A DNA stretch of 64,000 nucleotides, taken from an uncultured Desulfobacterales bacterium. Lineage in GTDB: Bacteria > Desulfobacterota > Desulfobacteria > Desulfobacterales > B30-G6. How positions within the stretch are numbered: position 1 is the first letter of the stretch; each line of letters opens with the position of its first letter. The notes under the pieces are model-generated. The model was not told the DNA's origin, ran no database searches, and worked only from the letters and a program-made list of their open reading frames with translations. The translations under genes were made by a program, and so were the position numbers. Shown in pieces: positions 4,171 through 33,361 of the stretch. The stretch is from positions 153,414 to 217,413 of the forward strand of contig CAYVMI010000002.1 of NCBI GenBank assembly GCA_964452555.1. The letters are read 5' to 3'.

Positions 4171-4923
4171 ATGAGCGAATACCGCGGCCTCATATCATCA
4201 GACTGGAGTGAATGTTTGTCACCCAACGGCCCGTTTGATTTCATGGCTTATGTTTACCCCCAGCTTGAATCGGATCTGTCCCTAATATTCCGGCAATATA
4301 CCAGCAATAAGATTAGCTTGAGGGTCGCCATGTGGCGCTGTCAAAGGAGCCTGCCTGCGCCAATCACTTTGGAACAGATGGATGCTTACCTGGATGAACG
4401 CTTTGCGTACTACACCGGCGTGCCCGAACTGATGGAAGCCTGTTTTTCACGCAATATCCTTTTTATGATCAACACAACGGGTTCACGGGGTTATTTCGAG
4501 CGGGCAATTGCCAAAAAACTGCTGCCCCGGCCAACGGCATTATCGGCCCACCCGGAAATCAATTTCGGGAATGATCGTGATTCCTGTGCCTTTTATGCCT
4601 TGCAGGAAATAACAGACAAACCCGTCAATACCGAAGAAGCAGCCAAACAATATCAGATCGCACCGCAAAACATCATTGTGGTGGGTGACAGCGGCGGGGA
4701 CGGCCCCCATTTCAAGTGGGCCGCAGAGCAAAATGCCCTGCGGGTGGCCAGCATGGCCAAGCCTTCCTTGAAAGCATATTGCCAAAATCAGCAGATCGAG
4801 ATTAATCTATTTTTCGGTCTTTCATATGAATCCGGGGAGGCCCGCCGGGGAACTGCAGAGATGCAGGTGGACTTCATGGAACTGCTGTCCTTTATCGAGG
4901 ATTGCTTTCCAAAAAGATCATAA
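4171..4923 (+). CDS. HAD-like hydrolase, uncharacterised
   Basis: N-terminal hhSSDWSECL and motif-IV-like VVGDSGGD. Confidence 0.6.
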   Translation: MSEYRGLISSDWSECLSPNGPFDFMAYVYPQLESDLSLIFRQYTSNKISLRVAMWRCQRSLPAPITLEQMDAYLDERFAYYTGVPELMEACFSRNILFMINTTGSRGYFERAIAKKLLPRPTALSAHPEINFGNDRDSCAFYALQEITDKPVNTEEAAKQYQIAPQNIIVVGDSGGDGPHFKWAAEQNALRVASMAKPSLKAYCQNQQIEINLFFGLSYESGEARRGTAEMQVDFMELLSFIEDCFPKRS

Positions 4924-12137: not shown

Positions 12138-12803
12138 ATGCTCAGCAAGAGTAGCAATCCGGGTGATACAGGGCTGACATTTTTCAGCAGGGTATCGGCC
12201 GCTGTATCGCATGAAATTAAAAATGTATTGGCAATCATCAATGAGAATGCCGGGCTGTTGGAAGATCTGGTGCTGATGTCTGAGAAAGGATCTTCCCTTT
12301 CGCCCGAGCGGCTTCGTCGCCTGGCTGTTACGGTACGCACCCAAATAAAACGGGCTGATGAAATTGTTAAAACCTTGAACCAGTTTGCCCATAGCGCCGA
12401 TCATTCGATAGATGTCGTTGACCTGTATGATGCGGCCGTTTTTATCACCGGTGTGCGTGAGCGAATAATGCGGTCAAAAAACTTGATTATCACCATAATT
12501 GCGCCTGACAGTCCGGTGACGATTCATACCAATCTTTTTTATCTGCAAGAATTCATTTTTATGTGTATTGAAACCATCATAAGTTTTTCAGAGTCCGTGA
12601 GATCGATCCGGGTAGAATTTCAGAAAACAGATCCAGGCGCAGAAATTCGATTTGTCTGCGAGGATTTGTCTGAAAATTTGTCTCTTGAAAGTGCTTTTTC
12701 GGACGATACTTATTCTCTGATGAGTTATTTAAAGGTGGAGCCCATTGGCGATAATGAGACAGGAGAATTCAGGATTCTATTGCCCGCAAGTATCCAATCC
12801 TGA
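12138..12803 (+). CDS. HisKA-containing protein with a degenerate ATPase domain (phosphotransferase-like)
   Basis: SHEIKNVLAIINENAG H-box present; no recognisable N/G1/F/G2 boxes. Confidence 0.75.
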   Translation: MLSKSSNPGDTGLTFFSRVSAAVSHEIKNVLAIINENAGLLEDLVLMSEKGSSLSPERLRRLAVTVRTQIKRADEIVKTLNQFAHSADHSIDVVDLYDAAVFITGVRERIMRSKNLIITIIAPDSPVTIHTNLFYLQEFIFMCIETIISFSESVRSIRVEFQKTDPGAEIRFVCEDLSENLSLESAFSDDTYSLMSYLKVEPIGDNETGEFRILLPASIQS

Positions 12804-27987: not shown

Positions 27988-28318
27988 TTTTGTTTCTGAG
28001 TATGTAAATATATGCCTCGACGGTGAGATTGTTTTTGGTTTTAACATTGGTCAAAACGCGTTGGTATTCTTCACCTTCAAAATCATCCAGTTCATCCCAA
28101 TGCTCATCGAGATTTTCGGAACTAAAAAGGTATCCTTGGATAGTATCACCCGCATCATCCAAGACGATACCGGGATAACCCATTTCAGCTCCCCAACCTT
28201 GAGGCTTTAAATAGCCATTTACAGAGCCTTCTTCCCAGGTTCCACCAATAGCCGTCATAACATGCTCATTGGGTCCGCCTGGAATCAATGTTCCATATAC
28301 AAATAAGCGCTGTGTCAT
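27980..28318 (-). CDS. Gamma-glutamylcyclotransferase (AIG2-like)
   Basis: LFVYGTL, GYPG, LDDFEG..YQR. Confidence 0.9.
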   Translation of the reverse strand: MTQRLFVYGTLIPGGPNEHVMTAIGGTWEEGSVNGYLKPQGWGAEMGYPGIVLDDAGDTIQGYLFSSENLDEHWDELDDFEGEEYQRVLTNVKTKNNLTVEAYIYILRNKKP

Positions 28319-28342
28319 CCCTGTTTCCTAAAGTTTCGTCAA

Positions 28343-29425
28343 TTAAAGATAGTTGCGTGCCTTCAACAATTCGGCTGTAAGGATAGCACCACCGGCAGCC
28401 CCACGAATGGTATTGTGGTGCAATCCGATAAACCGAATATCAAAAACGTTGCATTCGCGCAATCGGCCCACGGTTACGGCCATGCCTTTGTCTAAGTCTC
28501 TATCTTTTCTGGGTTGGGGCCGGTTCAATTCATCGCGTAAAATTATGGGTTGATTGGGTGCAAATGGTAAATCTAGCTCCTGGGGCAAAGCAGAAAAGTT
28601 GCGCCAAATCGCGGCAATTTCTTCAAGAGCGGGTTTTTTCTGTCCAAACGCCAAACTGACACAGGCCGTATGCCCGTCGGTCACCGGAACCCGGTTGCAA
28701 TGGGCCGATATGTCCACGCTGTCGGCGTTGACGATAACCCCGTTATCAACTCTACCTAAAATTTTAAGCGGCTCGATTTCAGATTTTTCTTCCTCGCCAC
28801 CAATATAGGGAACAATGTTGTCAACCAGATCAATGGCAGCAGGCCCGGGATATCCCGCACCGGACAAGGCCTGCAACGTTGTCAGGATTATTTTTTGGAT
28901 GCTGTAACCGGCTTTGATGAGCGCATAAACCGGCGCCATATAACTTTGAATACTGCAGTTGGATTTGACTACAATGAGTCCGCGGTCCCAACCTCGATTC
29001 TTTCTTTGTGCGGGAATGACGTCCAAATGATGCGGATTGATCTCCGGGATGATCATGGGCACATCTTCTGTATGGCGATGGGCTGAGTTGTTGGATACAA
29101 CGGCAAATCCATTGGTTGCATATTCGACCTCCAGGTCAGCTACCAAGGCTTTCTCCATTTCTACGGCTGAAAATATCACTTGGCAAGCATCCTGGGCATT
29201 GGAAATTTGATTGGCATCGCCTACACTTAAATCGCACACCTTTTCCGGAATGGGTGTCGGCATGTGCCACCTGCCGGCAACCGCCTGCGCATATGATTTG
29301 CCGGCAGAACCGGGTGATGCCGCCACATACGAAACCTCAAACCAGGGATGCTGTTCCAATAGTGTAATATAGTTCTGACCTACCATACCCGTGGCGCCGA
29401 TAACACCTACTTTAATTTCCTGCAT
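28343..29425 (-). CDS. asd: Aspartate-semialdehyde dehydrogenase (archaeal/fungal-like type)
   Basis: GATGMVG, SNCS, QALSGAGYPG, CNRVPVTDGH, HNTIRGAAG; RBS AAGGAG before ATG 29425. Confidence 0.95.
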   Translation of the reverse strand: MQEIKVGVIGATGMVGQNYITLLEQHPWFEVSYVAASPGSAGKSYAQAVAGRWHMPTPIPEKVCDLSVGDANQISNAQDACQVIFSAVEMEKALVADLEVEYATNGFAVVSNNSAHRHTEDVPMIIPEINPHHLDVIPAQRKNRGWDRGLIVVKSNCSIQSYMAPVYALIKAGYSIQKIILTTLQALSGAGYPGPAAIDLVDNIVPYIGGEEEKSEIEPLKILGRVDNGVIVNADSVDISAHCNRVPVTDGHTACVSLAFGQKKPALEEIAAIWRNFSALPQELDLPFAPNQPIILRDELNRPQPRKDRDLDKGMAVTVGRLRECNVFDIRFIGLHHNTIRGAAGGAILTAELLKARNYL

Positions 29426-29478
29426 TTTTGTTCTCCTTTTAATTTTAATTAGAAGTGGTTTCAAACCACTTCATAGAC

Positions 29479-29512
29479 AAAAAAAGCCCGAATGCTTTTT
29501 AGCATCCGGGCT
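29479..29512 (-). terminator. Attenuator terminator in the asd leader
   Basis: AGCCCGGAUGCU-AAAA-AGCAUUCGGGCU followed by a U run on the minus strand. Confidence 0.85.
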
Positions 29513-29540
29513 TGGTCGGTCATTCTATTTTTTTAGGAGA

Positions 29541-29633
29541 TTATATGAAAAAGCCTCCGGCAGCATGACCGTACCAAGCCCTTAGACGCTTGGTCTTGGT
29601 GCTAGTTATGGTCATGTTCATGGTGGTTTTCAT
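29541..29633 (-). CDS. asd leader peptide (30 aa)
   Basis: Hand translation MKTTMNMTITSTKTKRLRAWYGHAAGGFFI; overlaps alternative RNA stems. Confidence 0.8.
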   Translation of the reverse strand: MKTTMNMTITSTKTKRLRAWYGHAAGGFFI

Positions 29634-29729
29634 ATAATCGGTTTCGCTTTTATCAATGATAATCCTCTTAGACTGTGAGAAGAAATATGTCAAGAATCAA
29701 AAAGATGGAAAACTCAAAGTCGATCCCAT

Positions 29730-30332
29730 CTATAATCGCCTCCTAGTTTTATACATTGTTTCTAATTTTCGTCTTTGTACGCGGTAAGCATCATGTACCA
29801 GACCCAGAGACATAATCTGTTGGGTCATCAGTACAAAATATTCTTGCCGCATCATGAGCAACGCAGCACTAATATTCCCTAACATCAACCAGAAGTAACC
29901 TTCTGGTTTCAACTTGGCAAGCAAGTAGGTGCCCATGAGAAAGCCGGCGGCAATACCCAATTCCAAAAATTGATTGACGGTTGCCAGGCCGCCAAAGTCG
30001 TAAAAACTCAGGGCCAGTCCGATAATGATCATCAACTTGGCAAGATGATCGAGCCAAACGTATTCATGAGAATGGGTTTGACCAGACCAGGCAGCACTGA
30101 GTCCAAGGAGCATCGCCGGAACGCCGCTGGATTCCACGGCCGCCGCGATCCAGTTGCGTTCGGAGATAAAAATAAAGATCCAGGGGGGCAGGCCGAGGAG
30201 GTAGACGCTCCAGGCCCACATCCGCCATTTTTGTTGATGTTGATGGGTGACAGATCGTTCAGCTCTAGAAAAAAATAGTTTATTGAGAAGGTAAAAAAGA
30301 CCTCCCCATATTTGAAGCAGAATATTAAGCAT
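29730..30332 (-). CDS. Multi-pass membrane protein, PnuC-like
   Basis: About seven hydrophobic segments; GAGG RBS before MLNILLQIWGG; family call tentative. Confidence 0.55.
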   Translation of the reverse strand: MLNILLQIWGGLFYLLNKLFFSRAERSVTHQHQQKWRMWAWSVYLLGLPPWIFIFISERNWIAAAVESSGVPAMLLGLSAAWSGQTHSHEYVWLDHLAKLMIIIGLALSFYDFGGLATVNQFLELGIAAGFLMGTYLLAKLKPEGYFWLMLGNISAALLMMRQEYFVLMTQQIMSLGLVHDAYRVQRRKLETMYKTRRRL

Positions 30333-30475
30333 GTTAACACCTCTGAGGATAGGTAGTGGCAATGAACGCATTGCCGGCCGACCACATCTCCGCCATCAGT
30401 AAAAGCAACAATCCAATAGAGTGATGGCTTAAATGGCCAGTCGATTAATTTGTAGATGCTTGTAATTAAATGGGA

Positions 30476-30589
30476 TTAGATTAATTGAGGAGGTGGTGGT
30501 GGGGGAGAGGTGCAACCATAGCCCCATAACACAAAATCGTCAATGACGGTGCTTCGGGCTATTTTTCTTATATGGGATGAATCTCTCAT
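30476..30589 (-). CDS. Small ORF with a hexaproline run (or lipoprotein remnant)
   Basis: GGAG RBS; MRDSSHIRKIARSTVIDDFVLWGYGCTSPPPPPPQLI. Confidence 0.4.
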   Translation of the reverse strand: MRDSSHIRKIARSTVIDDFVLWGYGCTSPPPPPPQLI

Positions 30590-30753
30590 GATATGCTCCA
30601 GAGTTTCAGGCTTTATTGCTGTTGTTTAAAATCGTACCAGGATCCTTATGTCATGCAATAATCTACTTAGAAATTTACCAAACAGGATAACGAATGTAAA
30701 GATCATTGTTATCAATAACTTTTTTTATGAATTAAAACCAATTAGCATTTAAT

Positions 30754-33063
30754 TTATGGAACACCGATAAGTGAAAAAGGTGCCCAATAATATGGATGCG
30801 GATAGTGGTCCATAATATGGAGTTGGGCCATCCTTAACGCCGGCAACATACCTTCGTGAGGAATTTTTTCGTAAAATTGTACCATCAATTCCTTGGTTGC
30901 CTGGTCGTCCACCTTCCACAAACTGGAGACAATTGTGCTGGTACCGGCATAGAAGAAACCACGTGTAAAACCGACAACGTCATCGCCCCCGGCGATTTGG
31001 CCAAGACCCGTATCACAGGCGCTTAATGTCACCAGGTCGGCATCGAACTGCAACCCAAAAAGTTCGCCCACTGTAAGAAGTCCATCATTTTGGTTGTCTG
31101 GGGCGAGAAGCAGTGCGGATTCTAAGGGCTTTTCATCATTAAAAGTGCCATGGCTTGCAAAATGCAGGATGTTAAACTTGGCGCCTTTTTGTTTGATATA
31201 TGATTCCGTGGCATCCCCCCTCAACAAAACGGTGGAATTTGGGAATTGTTCAGAGATGGAAACCACTTCCTCCTGCGAGAATTTAAGATCGTAGCGTGGA
31301 TCTTGAAGGTCTGGGTTTCCAAGAATGAGCACAGGTGCATTGCTTGAAAGTGACTTTTTTCTTAAATAGCGAAGAACTGTCGCGCTGGGGAGTGACCGCA
31401 CTTCATATCGCTTTACCAAATATTCTTTTCCATCATTTAAAGCACTGAAAGGTAAATAGTGCAGTTGCCCATGGGGGACTACTGTAAGCCTTTTTCCGGA
31501 GATGAAATTGCTGACGGGTTCTATTAATTGGCTGTATAGCTTGCGGCTCCATTGAAGGTGTTCGGGGGCGTCAGGGATGACTAAAGATTTTCGGAAATGC
31601 GCAATGTTTTGGGCAAGGTCATTCAACGGATTTTTAATCCCTCGAATACCTTGCTGATTAAGAACAAAAATAAAAAGGTTTTCCTCGCTCGTATAGTACT
31701 CGATCAAAGTCTCCTCTGGATGGAGAAACTCCTGAATCTTTTTGACGGGTGTATTGCTTACACTTACAAGCGAAGCAAGCTCCGGATCCATATTGGAAAG
31801 GGATTTTTTCAGCTTAACCATGACACCCCGATGTTTGCTTTGGGCAGTTTGTTCCGAAGGCAATGGCGCGGCTTCAAGTTTTTGTAGCTGATTAACCAAA
31901 GCGTTGGCGTTCCCGGAACTGGATTCTCTATGGGTAAATGTTTTCTGGGAGGCTAGTAGGTCAACCAGGGCCCTGGCTTTTGCTCGTTCAACTGTCTCAA
32001 AGGCCTGGTCCGTCATTCCTTTTTGCAAAAGTAGATCTGTTAATTCATGATAAATGCTTTGCTTGTCGCCGACAAAACCGATTCGTCCCGTATCGGTATC
32101 TATGGTAGCCCTCTGACGTTCAATCAGTTCGGATGCTCTCACTAACAATTCAACCGCCCTATCCGGATTATTCTGAAGCTTGGCGATTCGTGCGCGGTCA
32201 AGAAGAATAACCCAATGCATACCTCCCAGCTCTGTTATGCGTGGATGATCCAATAGGCTGTCATATCCGGATGCTGCTTCAGATAGTCTTTCCAACTCAT
32301 ATAAACACTTGGCGCGGATAAAATATTTGGGAACATCCTGAAAGTCGGAATCATAATGCATTTGTAAGGAGGGAGGGACCTTGGCATTGGGATTGTTTAT
32401 GGAAGCCAATGCCTTTGAATAGTTACCGGCCGCCAGGTAAATTTTGCTTATGCCAATAAATTTTTCCGGGCCTATATTGCTGTTGGCAAGGCTTACATGG
32501 GAAATTGCCTGGGCATCTTGTTCAGCTTTCTGAATACTGCCAGTCAGGGCAAAGGCGATGCCCCGTGTAGTTAACAGATGGATCAAATGGTAACGGTAGA
32601 AGTATTGCTTGTCCCGGCCATTCTGGTGCAGCATGGTATAAGCCCAGCTGGCGTCGGTGATGGCATCATCAAAATTCCCTAAATCTAATTTGGCTCTTGC
32701 TCGAAGTAAGATCGGCGTTACAGCGATGTCCATTCTATAATATTTATCTTCACCGGCATCGATTTTTTCTTGTAACACGGAGAGTTCCGAAAACAGGCGG
32801 TCATATATTTTAAGGGCATAGAGAGCCTCACATAGCCACATTTGCTCCCATGATGATAGGCGTGCGCCACGTCCTTTTTTTCGATCTAAAAAATCTTTGA
32901 GTCCAGCAAAGTTGTTGGATTGTGCGAGGTTGCCGATGTGAATATCATCATTGGTGGATACGACGCCAACATTGGAATTGTTTGTTGGCTGGATTGGGAC
33001 TTGTCCACAAAAAGTCAGAAGCAGGCATCCAACAACAACTAATATGGTTTTCCTTAGTTTCAT
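30754..33063 (-). CDS. TPR/CHAT-domain protein, probably exported
   Basis: Signal-like N-terminus, TPR-like helices, ERAKARAL, HFASHG, LSACDTG, SSLWKVDD, HPYYWAPF. Confidence 0.92.
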   Translation of the reverse strand: MKLRKTILVVVGCLLLTFCGQVPIQPTNNSNVGVVSTNDDIHIGNLAQSNNFAGLKDFLDRKKGRGARLSSWEQMWLCEALYALKIYDRLFSELSVLQEKIDAGEDKYYRMDIAVTPILLRARAKLDLGNFDDAITDASWAYTMLHQNGRDKQYFYRYHLIHLLTTRGIAFALTGSIQKAEQDAQAISHVSLANSNIGPEKFIGISKIYLAAGNYSKALASINNPNAKVPPSLQMHYDSDFQDVPKYFIRAKCLYELERLSEAASGYDSLLDHPRITELGGMHWVILLDRARIAKLQNNPDRAVELLVRASELIERQRATIDTDTGRIGFVGDKQSIYHELTDLLLQKGMTDQAFETVERAKARALVDLLASQKTFTHRESSSGNANALVNQLQKLEAAPLPSEQTAQSKHRGVMVKLKKSLSNMDPELASLVSVSNTPVKKIQEFLHPEETLIEYYTSEENLFIFVLNQQGIRGIKNPLNDLAQNIAHFRKSLVIPDAPEHLQWSRKLYSQLIEPVSNFISGKRLTVVPHGQLHYLPFSALNDGKEYLVKRYEVRSLPSATVLRYLRKKSLSSNAPVLILGNPDLQDPRYDLKFSQEEVVSISEQFPNSTVLLRGDATESYIKQKGAKFNILHFASHGTFNDEKPLESALLLAPDNQNDGLLTVGELFGLQFDADLVTLSACDTGLGQIAGGDDVVGFTRGFFYAGTSTIVSSLWKVDDQATKELMVQFYEKIPHEGMLPALRMAQLHIMDHYPHPYYWAPFSLIGVP

Positions 33064-33189
33064 CTTCATCCTTTCTGAAAGAAACAGTGAGATACTAATA
33101 TGATTGGGCAGAATAGACAATTGTTTCAGATAGATTTGAGGTGCACAATTTACTATGGAAAAGTTGAAACTCAGTACCTGGATCTTGCA

Positions 33190-33361
33190 CGAGTCGGAGG
33201 CTTTCATAGGCAAGGCGTCCTAAGGGATGACTTCGCCTTTGCCACCTCGACAAGTTTCGGCCGAGGCCGAGACAGTGTTTTTTACCCTGTCCCGTCGTAG
33301 CTCGAAGAGCGAAGTCGGATTCGATCCCTTGGCAACGCAGCATATGGAAGCCTCCGGCTCG
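33190..33361. repeat. Long nested palindrome
   Basis: cgagtcggaggctttcatagg-CAAGG...AACGCAG-catatggaagcctccggctcg with internal hairpins (gctc-gaa-gagc). Confidence 0.75.

Follow-up and report, generated by a model that had tools for sequence, protein, structure and literature searches.

The window, a 64,000-nucleotide stretch of DNA from an uncultured Desulfobacterales bacterium, carries on its minus strand an asd gene of the archaeal/eukaryal type, and the region 5' of this gene holds a short open reading frame (sORF), a set of alternative helices and an intrinsic terminator (Table 1). The Asd product matched TIGR00978 (asd_EA) over residues 4-355 with 383.7 bits (cut-off 301.2) and NF006416 with 453.8 bits. 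A gamma-glutamyl cyclotransferase-like (GGACT) gene follows 24 nt after asd, is possibly co-transcribed with it, and has no counterpart directly behind asd in the homologous loci. Two genes upstream of the leader lies a gene for an 819-aa protein with TPR and CHAT domains (30754-33213, minus strand; PF12770, 239.9 bits); its resemblance to Csx29, a type III-E CRISPR-associated protein, is weak (47.8 bits, cut-off 300).

Table 1. Features of the asd locus and its leader in the window (all on the minus strand; RNA motifs are written 5' to 3').
Feature	Coordinates	Strand	Remarks
-35 box candidate TTGACA	29688..29693	minus	from sequence; likely leader promoter
Leader sORF, 30 codons plus TAA	29541..29633	minus	ATG 29633-29631, TAA 29543-29541
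Control-codon zone ATG ACC ATA ACT AGC ACC AAG ACC AAG (M T I T S T K T K)	29589..29615	minus	
Strand 1, distal part CAUGACC	29610..29616	minus	pairs with GGUCAUG 29570-29564
Strand 1, core ACCAAGC	29588..29594	minus	pairs with GCUUGGU 29579-29573
Strand 2 GGGCUUGGUACGGUCAUG	29564..29581	minus	alternative partner of strand 1 or strand 3
GGAGG (29558-29554) and CUCC (29539-29536) flanking the sORF stop	29536..29558	minus	small hairpin within the antiterminator loop
Strand 3 AUGACCGACCAAGCCC	29508..29523	minus	3' half of the antiterminator; final bases start the terminator stem
Intrinsic terminator	29479..29511	minus	11-bp stem GCCCGGAUGCU (29511-29501) / AGCAUUCGGGC (29496-29486), then U7 29485-29479
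Perfect 9-bp hairpin GAAGUGGUU-UGA-AACCACUUC, no U-tail	29452..29472	minus	between terminator and asd ribosome-binding site
asd, archaeal/eukaryal type, 360 aa	28343..29425	minus	AAGGAG ribosome-binding site 29438-29433
GGACT (gamma-glutamyl cyclotransferase-like) gene, 112 aa	27980..28318	minus	PF06094, 57.7 bits

The initial annotation of this DNA had described a 30-codon sORF rich in Thr, Met and Lys codons, three mutually exclusive stems and a TTGACA hexamer, and had read them as a leader-peptide attenuator; reading the minus strand confirmed the sORF with the composition given for it (6 Thr, 3 Met, 3 Lys, 1 Ile, 1 Asn and 1 Ser in the first 15 codons), and the hexamer, the protector, the antiterminator and the U-tailed terminator overlapping the antiterminator were likewise all present. 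The sORF product is MKTTMNMTITSTKTKRLRAWYGHAAGGFFI, and no Shine-Dalgarno sequence was evident on reading the bases before the ATG at 29633. At a spacing of 17 nt from the TTGACA box the -10 region reads TAAGAG (29670-29665), a poor match, and the promoter scan contained no entry for the TTGACA/TAAGAG promoter of the leader. A TTGAC(A/T) box was located 57-68 nt 5' of the sORF ATG in 11 of the 15 homologous leaders examined. The antiterminator joins 29581-29565 with 29523-29508 in 16 bp with one bulged A; its GCCC (29511-29508) also belongs to the 5' arm of the terminator, so that the two structures compete. The terminator, which has a GC-rich stem and lies 54 nt before the asd ATG, was also returned by the consensus terminator scan. 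The GGAGG near the sORF stop is kept in the asd_EA-type leaders, and the GGAGG/CUCC hairpin appeared in the folds of most homologs. A freshwater-2 match from Rfam that stays below threshold (32.4 bits versus a gathering score of 49.9) spans the 9-bp hairpin that precedes the asd ribosome-binding site. The sequence of this short region holds a sORF after a promoter box, a cluster of Thr codons, the helices 1:2, 2:3 and 3:4 and a terminator before the gene, which are the features of a leader-peptide attenuator, although its Shine-Dalgarno sequence and -10 box are weak. When positions 29665-29470 were folded, the minimum free energy was -65.5 kcal/mol, compared with -38.3 +/- 4.1 kcal/mol for dinucleotide shuffles (z -6.6), and none of 200 shuffles was as stable; folded separately, helices 1:2, 2:3 and 3:4 of the window yielded -19.9, -31.6 and -19.0 kcal/mol.

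The same leader was found before the asd homologs of genome G016 (64% protein identity) and of a Desulfobacteraceae MAG (L015, 78%), and was absent before those of G035 (73% identity, with an intergenic region of 68 nt) and L014 (81%). Among 80 asd_EA loci from genome contigs, the GGCTTGGT motif occurred within 450 nt upstream in L015 only. The cores shared by these leaders were turned into a search pattern, which matched 4 genomes, counting the window's own, out of 401 in the order; the reversed pattern, used as control, matched none. The pattern also matched 13 metagenome contigs, 12 of which were genuine; the remaining one (L106) lies within a coding region, lacks a terminator and was dropped as a chance match, and among the genuine leaders that of L108 is identical to that of L104. 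A covariance model was then built from 14 leaders; at a threshold of E <= 0.001 it found matches in 6 of 151 genomes from the order, one of them a new and more diverged asd_EA leader in G100 (71.9 bits) with a different strand 3. Applied to 150 other genomes of the phylum, the model returned a single hit (L130), a false positive at the 3' end of a 463-aa gene and its terminator. The leader family looks confined to the order, and rare within it, among the genomes searched.

The architecture recurs in 15 further aligned leaders and in L124, and in almost every case an asd gene follows, with two Asd families involved. An asd_EA gene stands behind the leaders of the window, L015, L005, L098, L099, L101, L102, L109 and L124, and a 352-aa bacterial-type Asd (PRK14874 type, NF011456, 338-352 bits) behind those of L100 and of the L103/L104/L105/L108/L110 group. 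The short contig L107 ends before a readable downstream gene, and its leader equals that of L098 except for one synonymous change. Two genomes carry what on sequence grounds are decaying copies of the module: in G030 (L095/L127, contig C59) the asd behind the leader carries an internal deletion and the upstream ATG of the leader reads ATA, and in G284 (L096, contig C26) the gene behind the leader is that of a transposase of the IS701 family (364.5 bits). The G030 contig also holds, 1.4 kb upstream, a second remnant comprising strand 3 and the terminator. Since the flanking genes vary from locus to locus, the leader together with its asd behaves as a module of its own.

The predicted structures are maintained across the family. 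In all 16 aligned sequences the protector folded with -16 to -25 kcal/mol and the antiterminator with -22 to -36 kcal/mol, and terminator hairpins of -17 to -20 kcal/mol were obtained for 15 of the 16 (L005 left out). RNAalifold recovered the 1:2 core and the terminator. In the 16-sequence alignment, paired cells amounted to 86% for the protector 1:2, 82% for the antiterminator 2:3, both with an invariant core, and 92% for the terminator 3:4. Within the protector, the core helix ACCAAGC/GCUUGGU is paired in 16 of 16 sequences (100%), and the distal helix CAUGACC/GGUCAUG is 73% paired, with three pairs changed on both sides. The terminator has five compensatory pairs in 17 cells, and its covariation score was reached by none of 500 shuffles. 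Covariation was thus restricted to the terminator and, in part, to the helix extensions; the cores of helices 1:2 and 2:3 give no such evidence, because their bases were fixed by the search pattern. The leader of G100, which was found by the covariance model, has a different strand 3 and extension and still retains the pairing, and is the sole independent hint for helix 2:3. A further helix between the start and the stop of the sORF was considered, in which AUUAUAUGAAAA pairs with UUUUCAUAUAAU in the window (29622-29639 with 29538-29552, minus strand; -15.2 kcal/mol, 0 of 200 shuffles). As this pairing lay clearly above shuffles in just 2 of 14 leaders (the window and L100), with L096 borderline at 0.095, it was dropped and is not counted as a feature of the family.

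We next consider whether the sORF behaves as a coding sequence. The nine asd_EA-type leaders could be aligned without indels from the conserved ATG-ACC to GGN-GGN, and in this set 126 of 320 pairwise codon differences (39%) were synonymous in the sORF frame, as against 45 of 324 (14%) and 93 of 371 (25%) in the other two; the sequence pairs are not independent, so the result is an indication and not a test. In the same leaders the extra nucleotide states numbered 6, 14 and 20 at the three codon positions. An ATGAAA start is aligned in most homologs, and ACC, ACT, ACA and ACG interchange at the Thr positions, which indicates that these are kept as codons and not as nucleotides. From these patterns we infer translation, and the sORF looks translated. 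Within the asd_EA subgroup the product has a strongly conserved C-terminal half, R-A-W-Y/C-G-H-A-A-G-G. L005 has 10 nt inserted in the 1:2 loop and 1 nt deleted later on, with the result that strand 2 is read in another frame, and the frame is restored ahead of GGAGG and the stop; L005 keeps the nucleotides of strand 2 and not the peptide, which argues that strand 2 is conserved as RNA. Also retained is an open frame whose stop falls between strands 2 and 3.

Control codons were counted by hand in the ten codons ending at the strand 1 Lys, for 13 distinct leader types. Thr occupies two to seven of these ten codons (median 5; four in the window), Lys one to three, and Met none or one; Ile is found in 9 of the 13 types. 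A metagenome subgroup (L103, L104, L105, L108 and L110) has just two Thr codons and a weak U-tract. The alignment of asd upstream regions that the initial annotation had suggested thus yielded a conserved sORF and a covarying terminator; what did not appear was a sORF rich in Thr, Met, Lys and Ile in full, and covariation in the core helices was uninformative, being fixed by the pattern.

The leader was compared with known regulatory RNAs and leader peptides. Within 28000-31000 no Rfam family reached its gathering score among the nine matches with E up to 10: the Thr_leader family (RF00506) scored 17.8 bits (E 4.7; gathering score 55) and His_leader 23 bits versus 49, and the asd RNA motif (RF01732), the lysine riboswitch and the T-box were not among these nine. 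In the classical thrL system, a Thr-rich sORF with interspersed Ile codons, alternative helices and an intrinsic terminator precede an aspartate-family gene. The window's leader resembles the enterobacterial thr leader in its promoter-proximal Thr/Ile sORF, its 1:2, 2:3 and 3:4 helices, its terminator and its logic, but the two have no sequence or profile homology. They differ also in target, which is a single asd here and thrABC for thrL, and in host, a Desulfobacterales-like bacterium as opposed to a gammaproteobacterium; moreover, unlike in thrL, the sORF of the present leader extends 7-13 codons past strand 2, with its stop inside the antiterminator loop. In Sinorhizobium meliloti 2011 the 5' UTR of an aspartate-pathway dehydrogenase gene contains SEP5, a translated sORF in which six Thr and three Lys codons are clustered; in the available part of the report by Hadjeras et al. 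(2023, PMC10117765) it was proposed as a leader peptide, with conservation restricted to Sinorhizobium. The same part describes no terminator or antiterminator for SEP5, whereas the window's leader has both, and the two are presumably unrelated in sequence. The asd RNA motif of Lactobacillales (RF01732) is, like the present leader, a structured RNA upstream of asd genes (Weinberg et al., 2010, PMC2864571), but it gave no match here and, in the part of that paper available, is not described as a leader-peptide attenuator. A search of the full-text literature, covering few subscription journals, returned no asd leader in Desulfobacterota and no leader-peptide attenuators in the Desulfobacterales-like order.

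The asd gene behind the leader is not the only one of its genome. A second asd, of the bacterial type, is located on contig C10 (TIGR01296, 496 bits), and no leader sORF or terminator was seen in the approximately 190 nt between it and the preceding gene. This gap before the housekeeping asd contains a long imperfect inverted repeat of TTAGGTTTTA-like units (L006, contig C10 of the window's genome, 2560-2720). A bacterial-type asd above the cut-off was present in all ten genomes of the genus, the window's included, and a homolog of the window's asd at E <= 1e-60 was detected in none of the nine other genomes of the genus and in 2 of 40 relatives. Given that, within the genus, the bacterial-type gene is found throughout and the extra copy only here, the leader would control an accessory paralog and not the sole Asd. 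Among proteins encoded on genome contigs, those of two Desulfobacterales MAGs (81 and 78% identity) come nearest, ahead of proteins from Dehalococcoidia, Methanofastidiosa and other archaea, and the gene was, judging from these sequences, probably acquired horizontally. Genome G016 likewise has a separate bacterial-type asd (518.9 bits), and G030, G284 and G035 have one more asd-like gene each (382-386 aa). In the window's genome neither a leader nor an Rfam match at gathering score was found before the three aspartokinase genes, hom, the three thrC-like genes or the bacterial-type asd. The placement of the attenuator at the branch point of the pathway, as initially annotated, has to be qualified, in that the gene behind it is an accessory paralog of the archaeal type; the bacterial-type housekeeping asd stands without a leader.

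Other amino-acid leaders were identified in the same genome and order. On contig C18 of the window's genome (approximately 12328-12480, plus strand; locus L112, 1510-1650) argG (argininosuccinate synthase, 631.9 bits) is directly preceded by an Arg leader, made up of a sORF of 28 codons that include four Arg codons in succession and of a GC-rich terminator carrying a U-run; this leader scored 36.8 bits with the asd-leader covariance model. A whole-genome scan revealed two Phe-rich leader sORFs, both encoding G-R-F-F-F-x-F-R-S-V-H-P and each followed by a terminator, one before a DAHP synthase gene (contig C67, L129, gene 349-1176; 435 bits) and one before a gene for a 136-aa protein with no NCBIfam match (contig C28, L128, gene 351-758). 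In G035 (contig C132, L126, minus strand, hit 4458-4592) seven consecutive Tyr codons and a terminator were found upstream of a prephenate dehydrogenase gene (348 bits). In addition, a 22-codon sORF with four Thr codons, ending G-G-L-F-Q, was found in G093 (contig C29, L125, 1510-1700; 41.3 bits). This leader is similar to the asd leaders in strand 3 and in its terminator, and its downstream gene encodes not Asd but a 379-aa PLP enzyme of Cys/Met metabolism. The Arg, Phe and Tyr leaders share the architecture of the asd leader, but each has control codons and a regulated gene of its own, and beyond the terminator region they show no clear sequence homology to it. Because the codons of these leaders match the pathways of their genes, the order probably uses leader-peptide attenuation; and because each is dominated by one amino acid fitting its gene, the asd leader is best read as a Thr leader.

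On the anatomy of the leader, its conservation, the coding signature of the sORF and the covariation of the terminator, we propose, with a probability of roughly 0.75, that it is a classical ribosome-mediated attenuator on an accessory, horizontally acquired archaeal-type asd, with charged Thr-tRNA as the chief input and Ile-tRNA as a probable one. Transcription would start downstream of the TTGACA box, and a ribosome would translate the 30-codon sORF. When Thr (or Ile) is scarce, the ribosome would stall on codons 8-14 (29612-29592) and cover strand 1 (CAUGACC...ACCAAGC), leaving strand 2 (29581-29564) free to pair with strand 3 (29523-29508); helix 2:3 would remove GCCC from the terminator stem, and RNA polymerase would read into asd. 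When Thr is plentiful, the ribosome would reach the UAA (29543-29541) within the antiterminator loop, strands 1 and 2 would pair again, the terminator (29511-29486 plus U7) would form, and transcription would stop near 29480. If the sORF is not translated, strands 1 and 2 would pair first, again with termination as the predicted outcome. The sensed amino acids, the stall positions and the geometry of the footprint, the last taken from the general size of a ribosome, are what we infer from this layout. That the leader is a ribosome-stalling attenuator on asd, as had been annotated initially, is well supported at the level of sequence by the conserved sORF, the helices, the terminator and the coding signature. 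Weighing against the proposal are the poor -10 box and the lack of an evident Shine-Dalgarno sequence, the low Thr count and weak U-tract of the L103 group, the leaderless asd homologs of L014 and G035, and the related Thr-codon leader of G093 that precedes a gene other than asd.

The alternatives concern chiefly which amino acids are sensed. Asd serves both the lysine and the threonine branch, and Lys could be a physiological signal beside Thr and Ile, such that stalling at AAG in or just before strand 1 would relieve termination and the spare Asd would rise when either branch is starved. The AAG within ACCAAGC, which is the invariant Lys codon, occurs in 13 of 13 leader types, a further Lys lies within the last ten codons in 6 of the 13, and L005 has K-K ahead of its Thr run; to this may be added the S. 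meliloti sORF, proposed as a leader peptide of an asd-like gene and holding six Thr and three Lys codons in the part of the report available (PMC10117765). The invariant AAG, however, needs no role in sensing, as it is forced by pairing with GGCUUGGU; the loop is just 8 nt, so that a ribosome with the last AAG in its A site would be expected to reach strand 2, which should weaken the antiterminator and makes this AAG doubtful as a productive stall site. The window's second Lys codon (AAG, 29597-29595) is moreover replaced by Arg or Gln codons (CGG, CAG, CAA) in six of the eight other leaders of the asd_EA set, that is, in six of nine with the window's own counted. We regard an input from Lys as unlikely, while still deserving attention. 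The broader claim made from the window's sequence at the outset, that the leader senses Thr, Ile, Lys and Met and so all end products of the aspartate pathway, is one that the homologs do not sustain. It drew on the 6 Thr, 3 Met, 3 Lys and 1 Ile in the first 15 codons of the window's sORF, and mixed leaders have precedent in that Vitreschak and colleagues reportedly predicted in 2004 that the thrA leader of Pasteurellales responds to Met too. Whereas Thr is conserved across the family, however, Met has at most one codon in the stall zone of all 13 types and is absent in two of them; the single ATG of the zone is part of the stem CAUGACC, as the invariant Lys is part of the core stem, and in L095 it is the sole possible start. 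Codon 5, a Met in the window, aligns with Phe, Leu or Ile elsewhere (TTC, TTT and CTC among the codons), and the other leaders of the genome and order are clear runs of a single amino acid. A four-input leader is accordingly very improbable.

It is equally improbable, in our judgement, that translation plays no part, in which case the RNA would be switched by a protein, a small ligand or an uncharged tRNA with the sORF incidental, or that the sORF encodes a small functional protein. The missing clear Shine-Dalgarno sequence would fit such a reading, as would, for a small protein, the strongly conserved C-terminal half in the asd_EA subgroup. Against this, no Rfam riboswitch, T-box or asd motif reached threshold in 28000-31000, the Thr codons vary synonymously and the coding signature lies in frame, the layout of strands 1 to 4 with the control codons in strand 1 is what ribosome stalling requires, and L005 keeps the nucleotides of strand 2 while a different peptide is read from them. 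A more far-reaching version of the attenuator may also be imagined, in which the leader is a portable, asd-dedicated cassette that has been recombined before two Asd families (the archaeal and the bacterial PRK14874 type) and acts as a mobile starvation-inducible module among Desulfobacterales. It would integrate several end products, with the codon run responding to Thr and Ile and the invariant AAG to Lys, and the conserved in-frame GGAGG and the fixed stop would hold the ribosome in the antiterminator loop. Taken as a whole, this reading is speculative and rather improbable; were it true, it would amount to an isoenzyme-style division of regulation at the asd step. In E. coli, to our knowledge, such a division exists at the aspartokinase step only.

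To return to the Thr attenuator as the preferred reading, Asd catalyses a common step that is generally taken to have weak regulation or none, and here an acquired second asd appears, from its sequence context, to be switched on by starvation for threonine, and probably isoleucine, through a textbook mechanism. The mechanism belongs to a class already familiar, and no new one is revealed. The leaders make up a small conserved family (about 17 sequences) suitable for submission as an RNA family, and the occurrence of leader-peptide attenuation in the order before genes for Arg, Phe, Tyr and Thr helps to annotate sORFs that are missed by gene callers. What is worth keeping is that a spare, acquired asd would be the controlled copy, that one cassette stands before two Asd families, and that the order contains several uncatalogued amino-acid leaders.
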